Positions 25,987 through 38,957 of a DNA stretch of 64,000 bases are shown piece after piece. Origin of the DNA: Candidatus Multivoradales bacterium (GTDB taxonomy: Bacteria; Acidobacteriota; Thermoanaerobaculia; Multivoradales; Multivoraceae). Location: positions 480,001-544,000 of the forward strand of contig CBDCWI010000002.1 of NCBI GenBank assembly GCA_965223325.1. The letters are read 5' to 3'. Position 1 is the stretch's first letter. Each line of letters starts with the position of its first letter. Position numbers and translations under genes: made by a program. The notes below the pieces were generated by a model. It did no database searches. It worked only from the letters and a program-made list of their open reading frames with translations, and had not been told where the DNA came from.

Positions 25987-27234
25987 ATGAAACTGCTTAG
26001 ACGATTCCTCGACAAGCAAGGCGAGATGTTCGAGGAGGGTGGCCGGTTCGAGAAGTTCCACGCCCTCTACGAAGCTCCCGACACCATCCTGTACACCCCG
26101 GGCGAGGTCACCCGCGGGGCGTCCCACGTGCGCGATGCAGCCGACCTCAAGCGCATCATGGTGACGGTGGCGGTAGCGCTCATCCCCGCGATCCTGATGG
26201 CGATGTACAACACCGGCCTGCAGGCCCACCTGGCGATTCAGTCGGGCGCCCTGGCCCTCGACACCTGGCAGACGACTGCCATGCAGTGGCTCGGTCTCGA
26301 CGCCTGGGTGATCTCGGGCTCCGGAGCGGACCCGTGGAACCTGCTCGCCTGTTTCGTCCACGGAGCGCTCTACTACCTGCCAATCCTGATCGTCACGTTT
26401 GCGATCGGTGGCAATGTCGAGGTGCTGTTCTCCATCGTACGCAAGCACGAAATCAACGAGGGCTTTCTGGTCACCGGGCTGCTCTACCCGCTCACCCTGC
26501 CGCCAACCATTCCGCTCTGGCAGGTGGCAATTGGCATCATCTTCGGCGTCCTCGTTGGCAAGGAGATCTTCGGCGGCACGGGGATGAACGTGCTCAACCC
26601 GGCGCTCACCGCGCGTGTGTTCTTGTTCTTCGCCTATCCCGGGTACATCTCTGGCGACTCGGTGTGGATCGCAGCGCAGAAGGCCCCCGATGCCTTCACC
26701 GGGGCAACGCTTCTGGCGCAGGGCTTCGAAGGCGGCATGCAGCAGGTCACCGCCACTGCCGGCTTCTGGCAGTCTTTCCTGGGCTTCATACCGGGTTCGA
26801 TGGGAGAAACCTCCACCCTGGCCTGCATCCTGGGTGGTGCCTTGCTCCTCATCACCGGAGTTGCCTCCTGGCGCATCATCGCTGGAGCGACGATCGGCAC
26901 GGTGGTGATTGCCACACTCCTCAACCTGATCGGTAGCTCGGCTACCAACGGCATGCTCGAGGTGCCGTTCTGGTGGCACATGGTGCTCGGCAGCTGGGCG
27001 TTCGCGGTCGTCTTCATGGCGACCGATCCGGTCAGTGCCGCCCACTCCGAAACCGGCAAATGGATCTATGGCTTCTTGATTGGCGTCATGGGCATTCTGA
27101 TTCGCACCGTCAACCCCGCGTTCCCCGAAGGCATGATGCTCGGCATCTTGTTCATGAACCTCTTCTCGGCATTCATCGACTACTACGTCGTGCGCGCCAA
27201 CATCAAACGCAGAAAGGCCCGCTATGCAGCGTAA
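25987..27234 (+). CDS. nqrB: Na+-NQR subunit B
   Basis: HVRDAADLKR, EGFLVT, FGGTGMN, FMN site DAFTGAT, PGSMGETS, FMATDPVS. Confidence 0.97.
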   Translation: MKLLRRFLDKQGEMFEEGGRFEKFHALYEAPDTILYTPGEVTRGASHVRDAADLKRIMVTVAVALIPAILMAMYNTGLQAHLAIQSGALALDTWQTTAMQWLGLDAWVISGSGADPWNLLACFVHGALYYLPILIVTFAIGGNVEVLFSIVRKHEINEGFLVTGLLYPLTLPPTIPLWQVAIGIIFGVLVGKEIFGGTGMNVLNPALTARVFLFFAYPGYISGDSVWIAAQKAPDAFTGATLLAQGFEGGMQQVTATAGFWQSFLGFIPGSMGETSTLACILGGALLLITGVASWRIIAGATIGTVVIATLLNLIGSSATNGMLEVPFWWHMVLGSWAFAVVFMATDPVSAAHSETGKWIYGFLIGVMGILIRTVNPAFPEGMMLGILFMNLFSAFIDYYVVRANIKRRKARYAA

Positions 27235-28015
27235 TAGCAGCCTCTACACGATTCTCTTCGCCACCGCCATGTGCGTGGTCTGCGGCATCCTGGTGTCGTC
27301 GGCGGCGGTCAGCCTGCTCGAGCGCCAGGAATTCAATGCTGCTCTGGACAAGCGCACCAAGGTCCTCGAGGCGGCCGGCTTCATTGCCCCCAAGGAAAAG
27401 GTCACTGCCGAGCGCGTCGATGAGCTGTTCCAGAACATCGAAACGGTCGCCCTCGACATGGCGACCAAAGCCGAGGCGCCCGACTTCGACCTCGAGGGCT
27501 ACGACCAGGTCAAGGCCACCGGCGACCCAGCCAAGAGCCTCGAAGCGCCGGCCAACAATGCCGCGATCCAACGGGTCCCGAAGTATGCGCAGATCTTCAA
27601 GGTCAAAGACGCTTCGGGCAACGTCGACATGTTGGTCCTACCGATCGAGGGCCTGGGACTCTGGGGAACGCTCTACGGCTACATCGCCGTCGACCCTGGT
27701 GACAATCAGGTGCGTGGCATTACCTACTACAAGCATAAAGAGACCCCGGGGCTCGGGGGCGAGGTCGACAACCCGCTGTGGAAGGGCCGTTGGCCGGACC
27801 GCAAGATCTATGACGACGGCGCGGTAGGAGGCGCGGTCGCTCTCGAAGTCATCAAGGGCAGTGCCGGCTCGGTGGAAGAAACGCCCTATCGGGTCGACGG
27901 GCTGTCTGGTGCAACCATCACCGGCCGGGGCGTGACCAACATGATCCACTTCTGGCTCGGGCCAGAAGGCTTCGGTCAGTACATCGAAGCCATCGCCAGC
28001 GCGAAGGAGGCTTAG
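27224..28015 (+). CDS. nqrC: Na+-NQR subunit C
   Basis: GLWG, ETPGLGGEV, FMN site VDGLSGATIT. Confidence 0.97.
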   Translation: MQRNSSLYTILFATAMCVVCGILVSSAAVSLLERQEFNAALDKRTKVLEAAGFIAPKEKVTAERVDELFQNIETVALDMATKAEAPDFDLEGYDQVKATGDPAKSLEAPANNAAIQRVPKYAQIFKVKDASGNVDMLVLPIEGLGLWGTLYGYIAVDPGDNQVRGITYYKHKETPGLGGEVDNPLWKGRWPDRKIYDDGAVGGAVALEVIKGSAGSVEETPYRVDGLSGATITGRGVTNMIHFWLGPEGFGQYIEAIASAKEA

Positions 28016-28021
28016 GAACCA

Positions 28022-28648
28022 ATGGCCAAGTCTGACCGGGAAGCCTTTCTGGATCCCCTTTTCAATGACAACCCGATCGCCCTTCAGGTGCTTGGTATCT
28101 GTAGCGCGCTGGCGGTGACCACCAAGCTCGAGACGGCGACCGTCATGTGCCTGGCGGTGATCTTCGTTCTCATCATGTCGAATCTTTCGATCAGCATCCT
28201 GCGCGATCACATTCCGAACTCGATACGGATCGTCGTACAACTTGTCGTCATTGCCTCGCTGGTCATCGTCGTCGACCAGTTCTTGAAGGCATTTCTCTAC
28301 GAGACCAGCAAGCAGCTCTCCGTGTTCGTTGGTTTGATCATCACCAACTGCATCATCATGGGCCGCGCCGAGGCCTTTGCGATGCAGAACGGCCCCCGCC
28401 TGTCGCTCATGGACGCGATTGGCAACGGCATCGGCTACAGCCTGATCCTCTTGATCACCGCGTTTCTGCGCGAACTGTTCGGTTCCGGAAAGCTGTTTGG
28501 CACAAACGTCATGACCCCGGTGAACGAGGGCGGTTGGTACGAGCCCAATGGCGTGATGCTGCTCTCACCGAGTGCCTTCTTCATTATCGGCGGACTGATC
28601 TGGTTGCTGCGAACGTGGAAGCCAGAACAGATCGAGGAGGAGGGTTAA
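28022..28648 (+). CDS. nqrD: Na+-NQR subunit D
   Basis: [33 protein letters not shown]. Confidence 0.97.
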
Positions 28649-28650
28649 GG

Positions 28651-29265
28651 ATGGAGCACTATCTGTCTCTCCTGGTCAAAGCCATTTTTGTAGAAAACAT
28701 GGCCCTCACCTTCTTCCTGGGTATGTGTTCATTCCTGGCGGTGTCGAAGAAGGTCGAGACTGCCGTCGGTCTCGGCATGGCGGTCATCTTCGTGCTGACC
28801 GTGACGGTGCCGATGAACTACCTGTTCAAGGCCTACCTGCTCGAAGAAGGGGCGCTGTCGTGGCTTTCGGAGTCGCTCGGTGGCTATGACCTCGAGTTCC
28901 TCTCGCTGCTCTGCTTCATCGGCTCGATTGCCGCCATGGTGCAGCTGGTCGAGATGACGCTGGACCGCTTCTTCCCAGCGCTCTACAACACCCTGGGCAT
29001 CTTCCTGCCGTTGATCGCGGTCAACTGCGCCATCCTCGGCGGTTCGTTGTTCATGGTCGAGCGCGACTACAACCTGGCCGAGTCGGCGGTGTTCGGCCTC
29101 GGAGCCGGCATTGGCTGGTTCCTGGCGATCGTTGCCCTGGCTTCGATTCGCGAGCGCATGCGCTACAGCAACGTGCCCAAGAGCCTGCGGGGCCTCGGCA
29201 TCACCTTCATTCTCACCGGCCTGATGGCCTTCGGCTTCCTGGCCTTTGGCGGGATCCAGCTGTGA
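28651..29265 (+). CDS. nqrE: Na+-NQR subunit E
   Basis: [35 protein letters not shown]; start at ATG 28651 after AAGG. Confidence 0.97.
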
Positions 29266-29321
29266 GCCCCGTTCTTGCGCCGGCCACTCCTACTTCGAAC
29301 CTGACCCTGGAACGTTAGATC

Positions 29322-30545
29322 ATGGGAACAGTCACCCTCGGCGTCATCATGTTCACGGCCGTCATTCTCGGCTTGGTGTCGATCCTGATGTTTGCCAAGA
29401 GCAAGCTGGTCGCCAGTGGTGAGGTTTCGATCCTCATCAACGAAGACCCGGCCAACACCATCAAGACCGCGGCCGGCAGCACACTGCTCAACACCCTGGC
29501 CGACAACAAGATCTTCATTCCCTCGGCCTGCGGCGGCCAGGGCACCTGTGGGGTTTGCAAGGTCAACGTCCTGGAAGGCGGTGGTTCGATGCTGCCCACC
29601 GAGAAGGGCCACATCTCGCGTGGCGAGGCCCGTGAAGGCTGCCGTCTGTCGTGCCAGGTCAAAGTCAAGCAGGACATGGAGATCGAGATCGAGCCCGAGA
29701 TCTTCGGCGTCAAGCGGTGGACGTGCAAGGTGCGCTCGAACGACAACGTCGCCACCTTCATCAAGGAGTTGGTGCTCGAGCTACCCGAAGGTGAAGCGGT
29801 ACCGTTCCGCGCCGGCGGTTACATCCAGATCGAGTGCCCGCCCCACGTCGCGGCCTACAAAGACTTCGACATTCAGGAGGAGTACCGCGGCGACTGGGAC
29901 AAGTTCGACATGTGGCGCTTCGTCTCCAAGGTCGACGAGGTCGTCAACCGCGCGTACTCGATGGCCAACTATCCGGAAGAGGCGGGCATCATCATGCTCA
30001 ACGTGCGTGTCGCCTCCCCCCCACCGCGTCAGCCCGACGTGCCGCCGGGGCAGATGTCGTCGTACATCTTCAACCTCAAGCCGGGTGACGAGGTCGTCAT
30101 CTCGGGGCCGTTCGGCGAGTTCTTCGCCCGCGACACCAACGCCGAGATGTGCTTCATTGGCGGCGGCGCCGGTATGGCTCCGATGCGTTCGCACATCTTC
30201 GACCAGTTCAAGCGTTTGCACACCGATCGCAAGGTCACCTTCTGGTACGGCGCGCGCTCCTATCGCGAAGCCTTCTACGTCGACCACTTCGACGGGATTG
30301 CTGAAGAGAACGACAACTTCGACTGGTACCTCGCCCTCTCGGACCCACTCGAAGAAGACAACTGGGACGGCCTCACCGGCTTCATCCACCAGGTCACCCT
30401 CGATGAGTACCTCAGCAAGCATCCCGCGCCCGAGGACATCGAGTACTACCTGTGCGGACCACCGATGATGTTGCAGGCGTGCATGAAAATGCTCGATGAT
30501 CTCGGGGTCGAGCCCGAGAACGTGATGTTCGACGACTTCGGGTAG
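29322..30545 (+). CDS. nqrF: Na+-NQR subunit F
   Basis: [10 protein letters not shown] and RLSCQ [2Fe-2S] ligands, [22 protein letters not shown]-terminal DDFG. Confidence 0.98.
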
Positions 30546-30655
30546 GGATCGATGTGGTTTTTCGGCCACTTTCAGGTTTTCTGGCAGCGATTCGCTGTGT
30601 ACTACCGGAGCGTCTGCGAACGGCCAGCAACACGTCGTTACCACATCGATCCCTA
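30543..30655. mobile_element. MITE-like palindromic element (~109 bp) flanked by TA, overlapping the nqrF stop codon
   Basis: GTAGGGATCGATGTGGT (30542-30558) is the exact reverse complement of ACCACATCGATCCCTAC (30640-30656); the interior is an imperfect palindrome centred on CAGCGA-T-TCGCTG; no ORF. Confidence 0.55.
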
Positions 30656-30982
30656 CTGGTCTTCTCCCCCCTTGGGTCCCCCGGAGGGGGAAAAAGGCGC
30701 AGGCGGTCCACGGCGCGGGCCGTCTTCAACGGCATCCGCCCTGCACATGCAACCGGGTTCTGCACCACGTCTTGCGCGCGCCTTATCACTTCGCCGCCAC
30801 CGGAGCTCTAGGAAGACCGGAGGAGAGAAAGGCGACGCCGCCGTTTTCGGCCACTTTCAGGTTCTCTGGCAGCGATTCGCTGTACTACCGGAGCTTCTGC
30901 AAACGGCTAGCAACACGTCGTTACCACACCGATCCCTACTGGTCTTCTCCCCCCTTGGGTCCCCCGGAGGGGAAAAAAGGCG

Positions 30983-32892
30983 ATCGCGGTAGGAGCGCCG
31001 GTTGCCCGGCGCCCCCCGCACAGATCCCAGCGTGCACTGCTAATGCACTGGGCTCCTGCCTCAGGTATTGACGACAAGTCGCTCATCAGGCCAGGGATGT
31101 TGGACTCGGGCTTTGGGTAGGTAGTGGGCCACCAGGGCCCACATCCGTTTCCAGGACGTGCGGTCTTTGTCACTGCGTCGGCGCAGAGCGCGCATCCAGT
31201 GCCGAATGACCTCCTGTCGAAAGGCGTTCAACGCCGCTGAGTTGCCGGGTACGCCGTAGTAGGCATTGAAGCCTCGCACCACGGATCCCAGCCAGAGACC
31301 TTGCTCTGGTAGCGGCGAGTGTCGGTGTCCCAGAAGGGCCGTACCGACAGCCTTCAGTGTCCTGCGGATTCGGTGGCGGCTCGTGATGCGCTTCAGCAAG
31401 AACCTCCCTCGACTAGACTGCGCACAGCAGTGCGTAAAGCCTAGAAACTCGAAGGTCTCCGGCCGCCCGAGACCTCGCGCGCGTCGGTTGTAGGCCGCAA
31501 AGCGGCCAAACTCCAGCAGGCGCGTCTTCTCGGGTTGGATCTCCAACGAGAAGTCACGGAGTCGCAGGTTCAGTTCCTCGAGGAATCGTTCTGCCTCCTC
31601 CTGCCTCTCAAATCCAACGATGAAGTCATCCGCGTAGCGCACGAAGATCATGTCCCCAAGCGCGTTGCGTTTCCTCCACTGCTGGACCCAGAGATCGAGC
31701 ACGTAGTGCAGGTACACGTTCCCGAGGAGAGGCGAAATCGTCGCCCCCTGAGGAGTCCCCCGCGTGCTCGCGTGCCACTTACCGTCTTCCATCACTCCGG
31801 ACCTCAGCCATTTCTGGATGAGGCGAAGGATCCTACGGTCTCCGATACGGTGCTCGAGAAACTTCACCAGCCACTCGTGGTCCAGGGCATCGAAGAACCC
31901 ACGAATGTCTGCGTCGAGCACCCAGTTCACCTTCCGCTTTGTGATTCCAACGAATAGCGCATCCAAAGCATCGTGCTGGCTGCGGCCTCGCCTGAATCCG
32001 TATGAGTACCCGAGAAAGTCTTCCTCGTAGATCGCATCCAACACCGAGACGACGGCGCGCTGAAGGATCTTGTCCTCCAACGTGGCGATGCCAAGCGGTC
32101 GGAACCGCCCATCCGATTTCTCGATGTAGACGCGACGAGTCGCACTCGCCCGGTAGCTCCCACGGTGGACACGAGAGTGCAGGTCCTCGAGATTGCTCAG
32201 CAAAGATTCTGCGTACTCGCTCCATGACACTCCGTCCACTCCTGCCGCTGCGTCTCGGTGCAACACGTCAAATGCGCTCCGGAGTCGCTCGACCGTGATG
32301 TGGTGAAGAAGCGCTGTGAACTTCACTTCCTTGCCCCTGCGGGCGGCTTCTCGTACACGGCCCAGCGCATTGCTCGCACTCTCCATCCGGCTCTGTGTCC
32401 GGGGTGCGTTTTGCTTGCCCGTGTTCCCCTTGGCCAGGCCCCTTCCCTCCACCGCCTCCGCCGCTGGTCTCCCACCGTTGTTCGACGACTTCGCAGGTAC
32501 TACGGGCCTGTCTGACTTCCGCCATCCGTGCGTCATCGGCTTACGGCCTCTAGCCTTCCCGATGCGGACCAGATACCCAACTGGCCAGATCGCGGATCTC
32601 CCGGTTCTCGCGCATGGAGATTCCACACATGCACAGGGTCTACGACCGCGGGGAGTCGCCGCAGAGCTCGCGATAGCGCGCTACGGAGTCTCGCCTTCCG
32701 CTTCGCTTGACAGCGTCGGCACTCCCAAATTCTTATTTCGCGGCTCAATACCCGGCCTGTGTGTGCCCCTGTCAACGCTTCACCGCACCCTCGCGGGAGC
32801 CGGCGCATGACTCGGGGACCCTCTGGGTCGCTACCCCTTCGAGGGTGGGACTCTCTCATTCCTTTCTCCATGCCGGTTTATCCCGGCGTATC
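30983..32892 (-). mobile_element. Group II intron (IIB-like, probably bacterial class E-like), 1,910 nt
   Basis: Domain V GAGCCCAGTGCA...GCACGCTGGGATC (~31023-31055) and domain VI with bulged A ending CCTACCGCGAT; 5' region GATACGCCGGGATAAACCGGC; removing it restores the repeat unit (AAAAAGGCG|CAAGCGG) with no duplication. Confidence 0.93.
31061..32536 (-). CDS. ltrA: Group II intron reverse transcriptase/maturase, no endonuclease domain
   Basis: AAGVDG, RPLGI..LED, SYGFR, DADIRGFFD, GTPQG..ISPLL, RYADD, FEFLGF, thumb domain GFNAYY; start MTHGWRKSDRPVVP. Confidence 0.95.
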   Translation of the reverse strand: MTHGWRKSDRPVVPAKSSNNGGRPAAEAVEGRGLAKGNTGKQNAPRTQSRMESASNALGRVREAARRGKEVKFTALLHHITVERLRSAFDVLHRDAAAGVDGVSWSEYAESLLSNLEDLHSRVHRGSYRASATRRVYIEKSDGRFRPLGIATLEDKILQRAVVSVLDAIYEEDFLGYSYGFRRGRSQHDALDALFVGITKRKVNWVLDADIRGFFDALDHEWLVKFLEHRIGDRRILRLIQKWLRSGVMEDGKWHASTRGTPQGATISPLLGNVYLHYVLDLWVQQWRKRNALGDMIFVRYADDFIVGFERQEEAERFLEELNLRLRDFSLEIQPEKTRLLEFGRFAAYNRRARGLGRPETFEFLGFTHCCAQSSRGRFLLKRITSRHRIRRTLKAVGTALLGHRHSPLPEQGLWLGSVVRGFNAYYGVPGNSAALNAFRQEVIRHWMRALRRRSDKDRTSWKRMWALVAHYLPKARVQHPWPDERLVVNT

Positions 32893-33632
32893 CAAGCGGT
32901 CCACGGCGCGGGCCGTCTTCAACGGCATCCGCCCTGCACATGCAACCGGGTTCTGCACCACGTCTTGCGCGCGCCTTCTCACTTCGCCGCCACCGGAGCT
33001 CTAGGAAGACCGGAGGAGAGAAAGGCGACGCCGCCGTTTTCGGCCACTTTCAGGTTTTCTGGCAGCGATTCGCTGTACTACCGGAGCGTCTGCGAACGGC
33101 CAGCAACACGTCGTTACCACATCGATCCCTACTGGTCTTCTCCCCCCTTGGGTCCCCCGGAGGGGGAAAAAGGCGCAAGCGGTCCACGGCGCGGGCCGTC
33201 TTCAACGGCATCCGCCCTGCACATGCGACCGGGTACTGCACCACGTCTTGCGCGCGCCTTCTCACTTCGCCGCCACCGGAGCTCTGGGAAGACCGGAGGA
33301 GAGAAAGGCGACGCGGCCGTTTTCGGCCACTTTCAGGTTTTCTGGCAGCGATTCGCTGTACTACCGGAGCGTCTGCGAACGGCCAGCAACACGTCGTTAC
33401 CACATCGATCCCTACCGGTCTTCTCCCCCCTTGGGTCCGTACACAGGTCCGCCGGAGGGGGAAAGAGGCGCAGGCGGTCTAGTTCGCGGGCCGTCTTCTC
33501 CGACACCCGCCCTGCACTTCGCGACCGACCACTTCGCCACCCCAGGCGTGCGGCGTCTCACGCCCACGACACAGAATCTCTGAGACGGTTCTCCGCGCGA
33601 GCTGGGGCGGCAGACCGTTATAGAATCGAGCC

Positions 33633-33863
33633 ATGCCAAGACTGTACAAACAAGACACCGGCGAGACGCTCGGTGAGCTCACCCAGGCCCAGCTTCAGTT
33701 CCTCATCGACCAGCTCGAAGAAGAAAGCGAAGACGACCAGGACTACTACATCAACCGCCCGATGCTCGAGATTCTCGCCGAAGGGGGATGCGATCCGGCA
33801 CTCCTCGAAATGCTCACCAGGGCGCTCGGTGAGGCAGCCGGCGTGGATGTCGCCTGGGAGTAG
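33633..33863 (+). CDS. Small acidic hypothetical protein (76 aa)
   Basis: Strong GC3 codon bias, LQFLIDQLEEESEDDQDYYIN motif, TAGAAT 6 nt upstream of the ATG. Confidence 0.75.
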   Translation: MPRLYKQDTGETLGELTQAQLQFLIDQLEEESEDDQDYYINRPMLEILAEGGCDPALLEMLTRALGEAAGVDVAWE

Positions 33864-34153: not shown

Positions 34154-34552
34154 ATGTCTCGCAGCAACGGATCCAAAGCAGCCAAAGCCCCCGAGCCCAG
34201 TCAACTCGAAGCGGTCCGCGACCTTCTCTTCGGAGAAACGGCGCGCAGTATCGAAGATCGGCTCGAAGACGTCTCGGGCGACTTCAAAGCCCGCATCGCA
34301 GCACTCGAGGAACGCCTTGTTTCGGCGATCGAACGCGAGCAGGAAGCGCGCGAGGCGGACGTTTCGGACCTCCGGCGCGAGCTCGCGGCCCAGAAGAAGG
34401 ACTGGAACGCCCAGCTGAAGCAGGTGGTCAAGCAGTTCGAAATCGAGGTCACTGAGCTCGATCAGAAGAAGGCCAACCGCCACGCGGTGGCCGACGCTCT
34501 CGAACAGGTTGCCACCTCGCTGCGAGGTAAGCCTGCGAGCAAGAAGGCCTGA
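34154..34552 (+). CDS. Coiled-coil protein, first gene of the small-GTPase module
   Basis: LEAVRDLLFG N-terminal motif followed by heptad-rich helix; AT-rich region with extended -10 (TGCTATGCT, ~34037) upstream. Confidence 0.75.
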   Translation: MSRSNGSKAAKAPEPSQLEAVRDLLFGETARSIEDRLEDVSGDFKARIAALEERLVSAIEREQEAREADVSDLRRELAAQKKDWNAQLKQVVKQFEIEVTELDQKKANRHAVADALEQVATSLRGKPASKKA

Positions 34553-34567
34553 TCGGCTCCAGGACCA

Positions 34568-36322
34568 GTGCTTCAGGAGTCGCCAGCTCGGTCACACGAC
34601 CCGGCCGAACCCTCGCTCGAAGACGACCAGCAGGTTCTCGATCGTGTCAGGCACCTGCTGGTCGGCCTGGATCCCACTGAGCTCGACTCCCTGCGCCAGA
34701 CGGTCGAGGACCCCCTCGCCTTCCGCCGGCATCTCGCCCAGCACCTGGCGGGTGCCCTGGGCGACCTCCCCGACGATCGCGAGTTCACCGAGGCGGCCTT
34801 CGGGCTCTTGCACGAGAAGCTCTGGGATGAGATCGAGGAGAATCCCGATCGCCTCGGCGAGGTCGTGGGACCGGCACTCGGCCCAGCGATTGCCAAGGCC
34901 GTCCGGCTGACGGTCGATGGTTTCATCGAACGCGTAGACCAGGTCGTGCAAACGGGCCTTTCCCCGCGCGCCCTCGGCTGGCGAATCGAAGCCTGGCGCA
35001 CCGGCACTCCCTTCGCCGACATCGTGATCCGCAAGACCATGCGCTCCAAGGTCGAGCAGGTGCTCATCATCCACCGCGAGACCGGGCTCCTCCTACAGTC
35101 GATCGGTGAGGCAGACGCAGACCCCAGCCTGGTCTCTGGAATGTTGACCGCACTCAGGGACTTCGCCGCGGACGCCTTTGATACCCAGGAGAGCGACGGG
35201 CTCGACCGCATGCGAGTCGGTGACTTCACGCTATGGATCGAAGACGGAAAGCACGCCGTCATCGCCGCCGCCCTGCGCGGCGAGCCGCAGGTCGCTCTGC
35301 GCGAGGCCATGCGCTCTGCTCTCGCCGCGTTCGAAACCCAACACCGCGCCGCGCTGGTCAACTTCGACGGTGACACAGCCCCCTTCGAAAGCGCCTTCCC
35401 GGCCGCCACCGCCCTCCTTGGCGTGCACGGCGCAGTGAAAGACACAGAGCACCGAGGGACGCGTCGCATGGTCGCGGCGGTCCTGGTGCTCTTGACCGCG
35501 CTGATCGTCATCGCTGCCTTCTTCAACCATCGAGCCAAAGCGCGCTTTCTCGCCGCCGCCGAGCGGCTGGCTGCCACCCCTGGCATCGTCGTCACGGCTG
35601 CTGACTGGGATCGACGCACGATCGAAGGGCTGCGCGACCCGAGCGCCCTCGAGCCTCGGACGCTCCTCGGCGACGCGGAAGAGGGCGACGAGCCGAAGCT
35701 TTCTTTCTCACCATATTTCTCGCTCGAGCCCGAACTGCTTCTCAGGCGCGCAAAGCGCGTCCTCGCACCACCGGCAACCATCGAGCTGAGCTGGGCCGAC
35801 GAGAAGACCTTGCGCGTCCGTGGGACGGCAGACGCCGAGTTCGGGCGCCGACTGAGCGAAGAGACCGCTGCGCTGTTCGCTGGGCTCGGTGACCCAGTGA
35901 CCCTCGATCGCTCAGAGCTCGTCATCGCAGAAGAGCGAGATCTCGCGGATGCCGTCGCGGCGCTACCTTCGCTATCGATCGGTTTCGTCTTCGGAACTCT
36001 CGAGCCGCTCACCGAGCACAACCTCGACGCGCTCGATCGTAGTCTCTCCCGTATTCAGGAGCTCGCGCGCGGCATCTACGGTCGGCCCGGCGCCCTGCGG
36101 GCCATTGGCCTCGCCGCCTGGGAGGTTCAGGATCTGGACCAACCGCTATCCGCCGAGCGTTTCGAGTGGATTCGTTCCCGGGTCGACACACAGCTTCCGG
36201 AAGCGATCTTCGAGATCCGCGAAGACGGTCTCCCGCCCTCTGCCATTGCCTGTACCACCGACTGTGAACCCACACCCGGCATCCTCTTCGAGTGGCATCC
36301 GCCGCCCTCGGAACCCCAATGA
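34568..36322 (+). CDS. Membrane protein: cytoplasmic helical and longin/roadblock-like domains, one TM, periplasmic BON-like and degenerate OmpA-like domains
   Basis: VEQVLIIHRETGLLL...LVSGMLTALRDFAADAF...IEDGKHAVIAAALRG; TM MVAAVLVLLTALIVIAAFF; PGIVV...IEGLRDP; LAPP...LRVRGTA; OmpA-like tail without GHTD/LS..RA. Confidence 0.65.
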   Translation: MLQESPARSHDPAEPSLEDDQQVLDRVRHLLVGLDPTELDSLRQTVEDPLAFRRHLAQHLAGALGDLPDDREFTEAAFGLLHEKLWDEIEENPDRLGEVVGPALGPAIAKAVRLTVDGFIERVDQVVQTGLSPRALGWRIEAWRTGTPFADIVIRKTMRSKVEQVLIIHRETGLLLQSIGEADADPSLVSGMLTALRDFAADAFDTQESDGLDRMRVGDFTLWIEDGKHAVIAAALRGEPQVALREAMRSALAAFETQHRAALVNFDGDTAPFESAFPAATALLGVHGAVKDTEHRGTRRMVAAVLVLLTALIVIAAFFNHRAKARFLAAAERLAATPGIVVTAADWDRRTIEGLRDPSALEPRTLLGDAEEGDEPKLSFSPYFSLEPELLLRRAKRVLAPPATIELSWADEKTLRVRGTADAEFGRRLSEETAALFAGLGDPVTLDRSELVIAEERDLADAVAALPSLSIGFVFGTLEPLTEHNLDALDRSLSRIQELARGIYGRPGALRAIGLAAWEVQDLDQPLSAERFEWIRSRVDTQLPEAIFEIREDGLPPSAIACTTDCEPTPGILFEWHPPPSEPQ

Positions 36323-36837
36323 CCGCAGTCAAACGACACAAGGTGGTGATGATTGGGGTCCCCGCGGTGGGCAAGACCTCGCTCGTGCGCCGCTTCGTCG
36401 AGGGCACCTTCTCGGAACGCTACCAGTCGACGATTGGCGTGCGCATCGATAAACGTGTCGTTGAGCGACCCGAGGGAACCCACGAGCTGGTCATCTGGGA
36501 TCTCTTCGGCCCCGACGAGTTCGCCGGTATTCGGCCGAGCCACCTGCGCGGGGTATCGGGTTACCTGCTGGTCGCCGACGGCACGCAACCTTCAACGCTG
36601 CGCCGTGCCCTCGAACTGCAAAGCTGGGTGCATCTCGAGACCGACGGAGTGCCGTTTGTTCTTCTGCTCAACAAGGCCGATCTGGTCGACGACTGGGCGG
36701 TCGACGACTCCTTCGCACACTCGCTGGCAGAACTCACCTGCGAAACCATCAAAACCAGCGCAAAGACCGGCGAAGGTGTGGCGGAATCGTTCGATGCTCT
36801 GGTCCAACTGATGGGCGCGGTGAGACAGGCGTCGTGA
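36319..36837 (+). CDS. Rab/Ras-like small GTPase (Rup-type)
   Basis: G1 GVPAVGKT, G2 STIG, G3 WDLFG, G4 NKAD, G5 SAK; ATGA overlap upstream and GTGA overlap downstream. Confidence 0.92.
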   Translation: MTAVKRHKVVMIGVPAVGKTSLVRRFVEGTFSERYQSTIGVRIDKRVVERPEGTHELVIWDLFGPDEFAGIRPSHLRGVSGYLLVADGTQPSTLRRALELQSWVHLETDGVPFVLLLNKADLVDDWAVDDSFAHSLAELTCETIKTSAKTGEGVAESFDALVQLMGAVRQAS

Positions 36838-38957
36838 AAGAGCGCCAGGCTCAGGCACTCGAAGCGTCTCTCTTCCTCGAGCGAGTCAGTGCCCATCACT
36901 ATCGACTGCCGGAGTCGATACCCGGCTGGGCCAAGCCGCTGCTCTCGGAGGGCGAGCTGCACCGGTCCGGCGAAGGAACGACTCTCGAGCTCTGTGAACC
37001 GACCAGTTTCATGGGTGCCTTCGCGAGCGAGATCGAAGAACACTGGCGGGAATCAAACGCGCCACTCGGCTCTGGGGTAGTGACCTTCAAGCAAGACCTG
37101 GGCGCGGAGGTCTATCTCGAACTGCGCGCACTCACCATCGGCAGCACCCGAGTGCTCGCCGTCGAACACATCGGCAGTAGCTACGCGGAAGCCCTGGGGG
37201 CCGCCACGGCCGGCCCACGTGCTCTCGTCAACCTCGCCCACCGCGTTCGCCACCTCGTCTTTCGACCGCGCGAGGACGAGGGCAGAACGCCGCGAGACCT
37301 CACTTTAGACCTCGATCCCGACGGTGTACCGACGGCCCTTCGCCCGCCCGGGTTCCTCGGAATCGATTTCCCGGCCACGCCGTGCGCGGACAATCCTCTG
37401 ACACGGCTACCTGCCGACTTGCGTACGCAGATCGAGCGGCACCGCCTGAAGGTTCTCGAGCACAATCAGGAGAAGGACTTTCAGTACCGGTTCCCAAACG
37501 ACCATGCCGAGCGCGGAACGCTCTACCGCCTTCTGATCGAACCGGTCGGAGACGGTGCGACGCGCCTCTTTGCCCTCGACATCACCTCTCACCACGAAGC
37601 CTTCGCCCGGGCACTGATGGCCCACGACACCGACCCGGTCACCGGGCTACCCAATCGCAACGGCATGACCCGCCGCATCGCGACGGCCATCGGTCGCAGT
37701 TCCGTCGTTTCGAAAAGCTACTGCGGCGTTCTGTTCATCGATCTCGACGGCTTCAAGGAAGTCAACGACACTCATGGCCACAAGATTGGCGACCTTCTGT
37801 TGGTGCGCGTGGCCGAGAGAATTGCCGACATCACCCGCTCCGTCGACATGGTGAGCCGCTGGGGAGGTGACGAGTTCGTCGTCCTCGTCGAAGGCCTGCA
37901 TTCCGACCGGGACGCGGCGACCGTTGCCGGCAAGATCGTGCATGCGATCGCGCAACCAATCGAAATCGAGGGGACGCAGTTCGAAGTCTCGGCCAGCGTT
38001 GGCGTCGCGGTAGCACCGGCCGACGGCGAAGACGTCGACTCTCTGCTCTCGAAGGCGGACGGTGCGATGTACAAGGCCAAGGCCAGCGGCGGACGGCGCT
38101 ACCGTCTGGCAAGTCAAGTGGAGGAGAGCCTCCTCGCCCATCGCGAGAAGGTTCGCGCTTCGTTGGTCGATGCCCTGCGCAAGAAGCAGATGACCCTCCG
38201 CCTGTGGCCACAAGGAGCGGCCACCGAAGAAGTCCTGGGCTTCGAGGTCGTCCCTTACTGGTTGCATCCAGAGCGCGGACCGATCAACCCTGCTCTGCTC
38301 TTGCGCAGCGTCAGTCGATCGCGGGACCCTCTGCATGAGGTCTCGATCTGGGCTCTTGAACGGACCGTCGCGATGCTCGAGCGGGCCGACATCAGCCTCG
38401 CTTCAGGAAGCGGCGACTTCATTTGTAGCCTGGCGCTCGGAACCGAGACTCTCGGAACTGCCTCCGCCCTGGAGAAGGTGATCGCAATCCTCGAACGCGC
38501 TCCAGACGCCCGACGCCGTCTCGAGTTCATGCTTCCTGAATCAGTCCTCGAGCTCCACGACGCACCGGTCGTCGTCGGAAGGCTGCGCGCCGCTGGAGTG
38601 CGCCTGGCCCTGGTTCTCGCCGGAAGTCGCGGTCTCGAACCCGAGTTTCTCGCCAATGCCGGCTTTTCGCGCTTCGTGGTCCACGACTCTCTGACTGAGA
38701 CGGTTCTCAAAGAACCCAAAGCGCGCGCGATCGCAGCCGGGCTCGGCGGCGTCGCCCGCGGCCTGGGTCTCGAGGTCTTGGCCCGTGGCGTCGACAGCCA
38801 GAAGCAGCTCGAGGCGATGGCCGACTGCGGCTGCACGCACTTCCAGGGCTGTCGCACGGGTCATCCGCTGTCCATCGAAGAGGTCCTCGGACGCGAGGCT
38901 CAGCTCGCGGCGGATCAGCTGTTGAACGACCCCCTGCCGAGCGACTCGAACAGCTGA
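36834..38957 (+). CDS. Diguanylate cyclase with uncharacterised N-terminal domain, PAS-like region and degenerate EAL
   Basis: DPVTGLPNR, DLDGFKEVND.HGH..GD, RSVD I-site, RWGGDEF; EAL reads EVV and DDFGTG is missing. Confidence 0.9.
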   Translation: MKERQAQALEASLFLERVSAHHYRLPESIPGWAKPLLSEGELHRSGEGTTLELCEPTSFMGAFASEIEEHWRESNAPLGSGVVTFKQDLGAEVYLELRALTIGSTRVLAVEHIGSSYAEALGAATAGPRALVNLAHRVRHLVFRPREDEGRTPRDLTLDLDPDGVPTALRPPGFLGIDFPATPCADNPLTRLPADLRTQIERHRLKVLEHNQEKDFQYRFPNDHAERGTLYRLLIEPVGDGATRLFALDITSHHEAFARALMAHDTDPVTGLPNRNGMTRRIATAIGRSSVVSKSYCGVLFIDLDGFKEVNDTHGHKIGDLLLVRVAERIADITRSVDMVSRWGGDEFVVLVEGLHSDRDAATVAGKIVHAIAQPIEIEGTQFEVSASVGVAVAPADGEDVDSLLSKADGAMYKAKASGGRRYRLASQVEESLLAHREKVRASLVDALRKKQMTLRLWPQGAATEEVLGFEVVPYWLHPERGPINPALLLRSVSRSRDPLHEVSIWALERTVAMLERADISLASGSGDFICSLALGTETLGTASALEKVIAILERAPDARRRLEFMLPESVLELHDAPVVVGRLRAAGVRLALVLAGSRGLEPEFLANAGFSRFVVHDSLTETVLKEPKARAIAAGLGGVARGLGLEVLARGVDSQKQLEAMADCGCTHFQGCRTGHPLSIEEVLGREAQLAADQLLNDPLPSDSNS

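Follow-up and report, generated by a model that had tools for sequence, protein, structure and literature searches.

A diverged Group 1 Rup-type operon with a predicted longin domain beside a Rab-like GTPase in Candidatus Multivoradales bacterium

Which protein might control a stand-alone Rab-like GTPase in a bacterial operon is the question raised by a locus of Candidatus Multivoradales bacterium (assembly GCA_965223325.1). The window analyzed here, a stretch of 64,000 nucleotides (nt; contig CBDCWI010000002.1, positions 480,001 to 544,000, forward strand), carries at 34154-38957, in coordinates of the window, four plus-strand open reading frames (ORFs) in series:

34154..34552, plus strand: gene 1, a coiled-coil protein of 132 amino acids (aa) with an ATG start, corresponding to DUFY of Group 1 Rup systems
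34568..36322, plus strand: gene 2, a single-pass membrane protein of 584 aa (DUFX:OmpA)
36319..36837, plus strand: gene 3, a Group 1 Rup-type, Rab-like small GTPase of 172 aa
36834..38957, plus strand: gene 4, an output protein of 707 aa, recognized by Pfam matches and a family profile (E 4.4e-24)

As a preliminary description had read them, the four genes are co-oriented and the last three overlap, with the junctions ATGA (36319-36322) and GTGA (36834-36837), and a gap of 15 nt lies between genes 1 and 2. Gene 2 encodes, in this order, long cytoplasmic helices, a predicted longin domain, a transmembrane (TM) helix, BON-like repeats and a degenerate OmpA-like domain, and gene 4 a Rup-associated PAS-like domain, a linker helix, a probable second PAS-like segment, a GGDEF domain and a degenerate EAL domain. 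Genes 1-3 were each found by tblastn in one copy in the 6.69-Mb genome, and the single-copy state was confirmed by profiles for gene 1, the longin domain and the output N-terminus.

The Group 1 Rup neighborhood was delineated in 2014, in a genomic description, as a coiled coil, DUFX-TM-OmpA, a Rup GTPase and a diguanylate cyclase or phosphodiesterase (DGC/PDE) or a histidine kinase (Wuichet and Søgaard-Andersen, Genome Biol Evol 7:57; PMC4316618). No member had been characterized, a membrane-signaling hypothesis with a cyclase/phosphodiesterase output was given for the four-gene trans-envelope system, OmpA was reported to occur "often" in DUFX with OmpA-less rows also present in Table S2, MglB-type partners were not expected for Group 1 Rup, and an invariant Gln in the output N-terminus was proposed as a GTPase-activating protein (GAP) residue (PMC4316618). 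The word "longin" occurred 0 times in the text and the two supplement files of that paper that were searched. Rup GTPases were defined there as stand-alone Ras-superfamily GTPases of 150-240 aa (PMC4316618), and gene 3 is stand-alone, lies within this size range, has eukaryote-like G1-G5 motifs and has no Gln after G3. We identify the four genes as a diverged operon of the Group 1 Rup type, a kind already known by genomics.

When genomes were scanned with the alignment of gene 2, at least 565 of 594 candidate stretches were confirmed, and the locus counts given here refer to the best 80 loci, which belong to Acidobacteriota, cyanobacteria, Nitrospirota, Desulfobacterota and others. Gene 1 was detected by its profile in 78/80 loci, both misses lying at contig edges, and the GTPase in 76/80, directly downstream of gene 2 in 73; three of the four GTPase-less loci end within 500 nt of gene 2. 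An output N-terminal domain of type A was present in 58/80 loci and one of type A or B in 71/80, after exclusion of one spurious match in locus L004. All four parts were found in 67/80 loci, and the four genes, for which a neighborhood survey had been proposed as a check, are co-conserved. Rearranged loci were also seen, with the GTPase upstream (L075) or divergent (L078), or with the output upstream and no GTPase found (L051), and L021 and L022 yielded no type A or B domain.

Gene 2 gave no meaningful match in Pfam or NCBIfam, and 160 homologues were recovered among 8000 scored candidates, with PF00691 in most of the 120 matches listed. An AlphaFold2 model based on a 95-sequence alignment (mean predicted local distance difference test, pLDDT, 77) delimited the following domain:

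35042..35437, plus strand: predicted longin domain, residues 159-290 of gene 2 (from the model, Foldseek, VIA-align and the predicted complex)

The modeled elements (strands 161-169 and 175-180, helix 186-203, strands 214-217, 220-226 and 230-237, and helices 242-258, 260-264 and 278-285) follow the order strand-strand-helix-strand-strand-strand-helix-helix, which is that given for the longin fold (PMC3747258). The top Foldseek matches were subunits of COPI and of the adaptor protein (AP) complexes, Rag complexes, MglB, Mon1-Ccz1 and TRAPP chains, with 3 matches at E<=0.001. VIA-align, run over 48,161 chains, ranked the Vamp7 longin first (Z 12.0, root-mean-square deviation (rmsd) 2.6, 115 aligned), followed by CPLANE (Z 11.8), Sec22 (11.3), a Lokiarchaeota longin (11.0) and TRAPP (10.5); ranks 1-9 were longin-domain entries whose alignments reached model residue 283-293. 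Roadblock chains, with Z values up to 10.0, aligned from their own residue ~17-29 on, leaving their N-terminal helix unmatched, and ended at model residue 260-265, leaving the last helix of the model unmatched. Since longins align across 159-287/292 and roadblocks stop at 260-265, the modeled domain is longin-ordered; a roadblock identity for residues 159-290 was rejected on topology, namely its permuted order and unmatched N-terminal helix. On the strength of the model, residues 159-290 of DUFX very probably adopt the longin fold. A longin/roadblock-like cytoplasmic segment had been suspected beforehand at ~35050-35340; the AlphaFold and Foldseek check placed a fold of longin type there, in a domain larger than first drawn (35042-35437).

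The top structural rows for this model share 7-19% identity with it. A search by sequence against PDB gave 7 chance-level matches for the longin (best E 0.096), and 7/74 family members matched PF19036 (Fuz_longin_1) below threshold (best E 0.008), with no match for the window copy. The longin profile matched 5567 clusters at 50% identity, and no fusion of the GTPase, gene 1 or an output domain to the longin protein was found among 381 proteins.

Gene 3 matched PF00071 (Ras) in Pfam with E 3e-28 and carries the motifs GVPAVGKTS (G1), T38 (G2), DLFG (G3), NKAD (G4) and SAK (G5), with F31-x3-Y35-Q36 in switch I; its identity to the GTPases of same-type loci is 37-50%. A single-sequence phmmer search against PDB at E<=1e-20 gave 0 matches and a family profile was required, of which the best 60 PDB matches were all Rab proteins, with Rab23 first (E 4.6e-40). 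The GTPase is, as first proposed, Rab-like and not MglA-like, and Rup1 GTPases have been reported to group with eukaryotic Rab/Ras/Rho/Ran (PMC4316618; 10.1101/2024.02.28.582541). The coincidence of Rab23, CPLANE and Fuz_longin_1 was weighed and not accepted as evidence of orthology. G1-G5 had been called intact, which is correct for the motifs but not for the catalytic Gln that Ras/Rab have after the G3 DxxG, where gene 3 has Pro65. Among 74 family rows this residue was E in 56, D in 6, A in 5, Q in 4, and P, S and T in 1 each. The switch I Tyr (Y35) was present in 75/75 rows and was most often followed by H (41), Q (23), as in the window copy, or L (9); no Arg was invariant in switch I of Rup1. 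Elsewhere in the genome, the GTPase profile gave two more weak matches, G000:C2:2966120 (plus strand, E 2e-9) and G000:C2:697898 (minus strand, E 9e-4).

For the complex prediction, two copies of gene-2 residues 155-290 were modeled with the GTPase, alongside 3 controls. The complex scored 0.71 (0.71, 0.76 and 0.71 in individual runs) against 0.25 for the best control; the score mark was reached by 116/157 solved complexes and 2/215 mismatched pairs, which is a rough guide for these alignments and this stoichiometry. The runs had at least 91% of contacts in common, with a partner pLDDT of at least 77. The interface comprises loop 171-175, helix 1 (186-203) of both copies and residues 267-274 on the longin side, and residues 3-8, 28-45, 56-60 and 72-79 on the GTPase side, and includes the invariant residues G173, M192, A195, D202 and G268 of the longin and K8, Y35, G40, V41, W60 and G78 of the GTPase. 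Interface columns were more conserved than the rest in both the longin (0.74 vs 0.62, p 0.012) and the GTPase (0.78 vs 0.65, p 0.007), and the window copy keeps the consensus at 20/26 predicted interface residues vs 41/104 others (Fisher p 0.0008). The multimer run thus predicted the direct contact with the GTPase that had been anticipated, and we consider it probable that a longin dimer binds strand 1, switch I, the interswitch and switch II of the GTPase through helix 1.

These predictions can be assembled into one reading, to which we give almost, but not quite, even confidence: nucleotide exchange on the GTPase is promoted by the longin dimer bound to it, and the PAS-like domain of the output protein is where the GTP form then acts. 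In this sequence of events, the membrane protein would dimerize and its cytoplasmic longin pair would bind the Rab-like GTPase; the pair would promote exchange in the manner of an exchange factor for guanine nucleotides (GEF), switching the GTPase on; and, once loaded with GTP, the GTPase would work on the diguanylate cyclase at the latter's PAS-like front end and alter cyclic di-GMP (c-di-GMP). The periplasmic part of gene 2 would sense the envelope state, and the coiled coil of gene 1 would pair with the N-terminal helix of gene 2, a pairing suggested by an N-terminal motif common to both. Exchange was chosen as the direction of regulation because the sensor end should activate, the GTPase has no catalytic Gln and the 2014 description put a candidate GAP Gln on the output side.

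Several points weigh against this reading. Many longins either serve as effectors of GTPases or do not bind them, the best longin Z (12.0) exceeds the best roadblock Z (10.0) by only 2, and the GTPase P-loop lies outside the predicted interface. Because longin/roadblock-GTPase complexes have been solved (3cue, 5ldd, 3t12), the complex score may reflect likeness to them, and because predictors favor conserved surfaces, the interface conservation is supportive and not independent. The switch I motif Y-K/R that Mon1-Ccz1, Fuzzy-Inturned and BLOC-3 require in their clients (PMC12383261) is half present in Rup1, the Tyr being kept and the Lys absent. Finally, no homologue scored lower than the window copy for consensus match in 6 alignments, and this copy has neither the output Gln nor the OmpA Asp/Asn.

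The predicted 2:1 platform touches switch I and II and not the P-loop, like the MglB dimer, and the longin dimer might instead be an MglB-like allosteric GAP under which the GTPase stays off until freed by an envelope cue, whereupon GTPase-GTP would act on the cyclase. MglB is a structural neighbor of the model (Z 9.3, rmsd 2.8, 102 aligned) and its dimer reorients MglA while contributing no catalytic residue (PMC3747258); moreover, the Rup1 GTPase has no Gln in 70/74 rows and needs help for hydrolysis, and, as the window output has no proposed trans-Gln, a GAP would have to sit elsewhere. However, MglB positions an intrinsic Arg of MglA (PMC3747258), to which no invariant Arg in Rup1 switch I corresponds, and the fold is longin-ordered, longin platforms being mainly GEFs (PMC10933270). 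We regard such a GAP as unlikely, and exchange by the longin dimer remains the preferred reading.

On the output side, the following features were recognized in gene 4:

36861..37178, plus strand: Rup-associated N-terminal domain of PAS-like fold (model mean pLDDT 85.4)
37206..37208, plus strand: T125, replacing the conserved Gln of the family (Q in 53/56 homologues)
37629..38096, plus strand: GGDEF domain (PF00990, E 1.7e-44), with GGDEF at residue 344 and RxxD at residue 335 intact
38157..38849, plus strand: EAL domain (PF00563, E 1.1e-29), with degenerate catalytic motifs

The best structural match of the N-terminal domain had Z 7.8 (rmsd 2.6, 87 aligned), a value within the range that the structure-comparison tool calls common, and nearly all 50 rows were PAS. 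Judged from this model, the PAS-like domain is likely the input through which the output protein reads the GTPase, a role that fits because the same N-terminal domain is found on unrelated output enzymes. The cyclase motifs of gene 4, GG(D/E)EF with DxDxFK and NDxxGH upstream, are accounted for by residues 301, 311 and 344. Active EAL phosphodiesterases carry the motifs EAL, DDFG and AEGVE, in place of which gene 4 has EVV, LVLAGS and ARGVDS. Since GGDEF and RxxD are intact and the EAL motifs degenerate, gene 4 is likely a cyclase only. The c-di-GMP output assigned at the outset fits the intact GGDEF of this copy but does not define the family: among 32 output proteins scanned (of 65 longer than 200 aa), 19 carried a kinase ATPase domain, 3 were sigma-54 activators, 2 SpoIIE phosphatases, 1 an adenylate/guanylate cyclase, 1 an HD protein and 1 PAS only, and 5 had no match at 1e-8. 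c-di-GMP is one of several interchangeable outputs and not the defining one.

The family's Gln column lies in the linker helix that follows the PAS core, and we take it to be the invariant Gln of PMC4316618; both the type-A and the type-B output N-terminal domains conserve a Gln. This bears on a further reading, in which the longin, as a landmark or effector site and not a catalyst, would anchor the GTPase in one of its nucleotide states to a fixed place in the membrane, with the output Gln helix as the GAP. The switch/interswitch surface of GTPases is the surface read by effectors, and the predicted interface covers it. Among the fold matches is the complex of the SRX longin with SRbeta-GTP (5ck3, Z 8.4, rmsd 3.6, 118 aligned), and the exchange lysine is absent from the GTPase, which together with the conserved Gln would suit a tether. 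Nevertheless, the window output has no such Gln, the position of the residue in a linker helix makes a structural role as plausible, and 3 of the 4 GTPases with their own G3 Gln still adjoin a Gln-type output domain, on which ground compensation by a Gln in trans was also rejected. A landmark role seems to us quite unlikely, and we continue with the longin dimer as a candidate exchange factor.

The type-B output N-terminal domain, with WGG and FLEGLLP motifs and ending in QQ, follows the GTPase in 36/80 loci (examples are L009:9266-9667, L001:9281-10159 and L048:3270-5033); it is a separate small gene in most cyanobacteria and is fused before type A in Desulfobacteraceae, and 23 loci have both types. 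The profile match between types A and B was weak (hhalign probability 3.9%, E 0.011). A short (~200 aa) type-A protein follows a G3-Gln GTPase at L013:8259-8864, L024:9263-9844 and L039:9267-9866, that of L013 having no Pfam match.

Beyond the longin domain, gene 2 was resolved into the following parts:

35465..35527, plus strand: single TM helix, residues about 300-320 (hydropathy peak 2.99, for the hydropathy window starting at residue 301)
35549..35926, plus strand: periplasmic BON-like repeats, residues 328-453 (helix-strand-strand-helix-strand, pLDDT 89-98)
35963..36202, plus strand: degenerate OmpA-like domain (block pLDDT 51-89, tail 30-38)

Hydropathy gave no TM peak in the other three proteins. 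The BON assignment was supported by PF04972 in homologues P0004 and P0273, and YscD/CdsD periplasmic domains were among the Foldseek matches of gene 2 (E about 3e-3). The OmpA label proved recognizable solely through homologues, the window copy giving no Pfam match for this domain at E<=1. The conserved Asp and Arg of OmpA-like domains have a role in peptidoglycan binding. The GxxD motif, present in 90/94 homologues, is absent here, and the Asn conserved in 92/94 is D524, while R531 is kept. Because GxxD and the Asn are lost, wall anchoring, which had been proposed for this protein, is doubtful in the window copy in spite of the retained Arg, and its peptidoglycan binding is probably weak or none.

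Only weak coiled-coil-type Pfam matches were obtained for gene 1. The N-terminal motif reported as common to the first two proteins was present in both, and its core is family-wide:

34205..34234, plus strand: LEAVRDLLFG in gene 1 (family consensus DKIRDILFG-Q)
34637..34666, plus strand: LDRVRHLLVG in gene 2, resembling the gene 1 motif

The core [LIV]R-x-[LIV][LIV]-x-G occurred N-terminally in 74/75 gene-1 rows and 39/74 gene-2 rows, and in 25/4337 background ORFs of the same genome. As the profile-profile alignment was weak (hhalign, 35 columns, E 0.012, probability 3.5%), the likeness is, at the level of the alignments, a real short motif and homology is not proven.

The window copy itself is divergent, and it might be decaying, as a horizontally acquired or relict operon of which the cyclase alone still matters. 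Its consensus match was the lowest or equal lowest in 6/6 alignments, and its OmpA, EAL and output Gln features are degenerate; full-length gene 2 was found in just 2/60 relatives of the window genome (a tool tally of 61/61 for gene 2 among relatives reflects generic OmpA matches), and the GC content at third codon positions (GC3) is 0.75-0.77 in the operon vs 0.84-0.86 in two neighboring genes. On the other hand, the four frames are intact with their overlaps kept, the predicted interface is preferentially retained, and the divergence is exaggerated because the comparison loci were gathered with conserved patterns. Moreover, P0002, which is 43% identical and largely identical at residues 102-157, departs from the consensus in the same ways, also in the altered OmpA motif, and for this reason the sequences speak more for a sub-lineage under maintenance than for decay, which we hold to be very unlikely. 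A metagenome scan for relatives of this diverged variant gave 301 pattern matches, of which 0 were confirmed. As a model strain the window copy is a poor choice, but it offers a useful natural experiment, its wall-binding and Gln motifs having been dropped and its predicted longin-GTPase surface kept.

The promoter scan found 0 sigma-70-like sites, and terminator-like sites numbered 5 vs 3.4 expected. Upstream of the operon lie the following features:

25987..30545, plus strand: a gene run that, from its translations, we take to be nqrB-F (Na+-translocating NADH:quinone oxidoreductase)
30559..33517: an array of tandem repeats of ~283 nt each, split by the intron below
31061..32626 and 32636..32854, minus strand: a group II intron with a reverse-transcriptase ORF (Rfam RF02005, 180.6 bits)
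33633..33863, plus strand: immediately upstream of the operon, an acidic ORF of 76 aa without a match in Pfam or NCBIfam

The intron gave 14 near-full-length blastn matches at >=99% identity in the genome, the window copy included, and has on this account been active recently. The array contains four copies of a 40-nt core at spacings of 285, 2193 and 283, and blastn found the repeat nowhere else in the genome.

The longin family also extends outside the OmpA architecture. P0241 has three copies (670-798, 1175-1303 and 1679-1805) and P0359 two, both being giant repeat proteins with CARDB and DUF5915. P0326, a protein of 329 aa, has a tandem longin pair; its atlas look-alikes were archaeal clusters at 0.88, a lead only, it had no match in PDB by sequence, and a metagenome search for its relatives gave 117 pattern matches with 0 confirmed. 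For the longin itself, atlas leads under 0.9 likewise led to archaeal clusters, one with 22% PF19036. A word search for a stand-alone longin gave 148 matches among 2572 candidates, and the 120 matches listed looked mostly like fragments of the same protein, none named archaeal. These tandem, giant-repeat and archaeal look-alike forms may link bacterial and Asgard longins.

The operon-encoded pair gives Rup1 GTPases a named candidate regulator and a predicted interface, and because it supplies both regulator and client, two proteins, both small and soluble, make the ancestral action of longins on Rab-like GTPases testable, preferably in a culturable host such as Nostoc. As a wider and only tentative proposition, which we think rather doubtful, bacteria of many phyla would encode in one operon a dedicated longin-dimer exchange factor and its Rab-like client, TRAPP/Mon1-Ccz1-like and possibly related by descent, which would pass an envelope signal to interchangeable enzymes via a GTPase-reading PAS. 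The surprise is bounded, the operon having been known from 2014 and longin/roadblock having already been listed for bacteria. Neither the longin assignment of DUFX nor the predicted complex turned up in the literature searched, although subscription papers and preprint supplements may hold a prior assignment; nor did the literature searched include an experimental paper on Rup1 GTPases.

Compared with Group 1 Rup systems, the locus has the same four parts in the same order, a GTPase without the G3 Gln and a GGDEF-EAL output, and homologous loci were found here in Nostoc, Anabaena and Nitrospira, genera of Table S2 of PMC4316618. It differs in that the window copy is without the output Gln and the OmpA Asp/Asn, shows Pro next to G3, and has a short gene 1 (132 aa, most homologues being ~200 aa); and DUFX, left unassigned in PMC4316618, is predicted here to be a GTPase-docking longin. 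As in MglA-MglB and the actinobacterial conservon, a bacterial small GTPase lies beside a longin/roadblock platform and is tied to signaling enzymes, with predicted 2:1 binding as in the MglB platform; unlike MglA-MglB, the GTPase is Rab-like with the G3 Asp, and the platform is longin-ordered, its third helix being C-terminal, and fused to TM and periplasmic domains.

Longin domains were said to be absent from prokaryotes in 2013 (PMC3747258) and were later found in Asgard archaea (PMC10933270), a 2016 review giving longin/roadblock jointly as present in bacteria (PMC4917890). In one 2026 preprint, 48% of longin/roadblock signature proteins were in clusters across all four lineages (10.64898/2026.10.28.762692), and another source, citing unpublished work, describes profilin-longin-like domains as often associated with GTPases across life (10.64898/2026.10.19.760177). 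The Asgard longin of PDB 8yqg matched the model with Z 11.0 (rmsd 3.6, 131 aligned). In Asgard archaea, GTPase and longin genes are mostly unlinked, so that they cannot be paired, and those of MK-D1 do not as a rule share operons (PMC10933270), whereas the longin and GTPase genes adjoin in 73/80 loci here.

With the eukaryotic longin-dimer Rab GEFs, namely TRAPP Bet5/Trs23-Ypt1, Mon1-Ccz1-Ypt7 and Fuzzy-Inturned-Rab23, the domain has the longin fold in common (3cue_C, Z 10.5, rmsd 3.0, 124 aligned; 7q3d_C, Z 11.8, rmsd 3.1, 122 aligned; 9rs6_B, Z 10.0, rmsd 3.4, 129 aligned). Unlike these factors, it is modeled as a homodimer within a single-pass envelope protein, its client has no Y-K/R lysine, its output is a two-component-style enzyme and not trafficking, and its exchange activity is predicted at most; like them, it is predicted to form a dimer platform via helix 1 and to face a client with the switch I Phe/Tyr at the same spacing.

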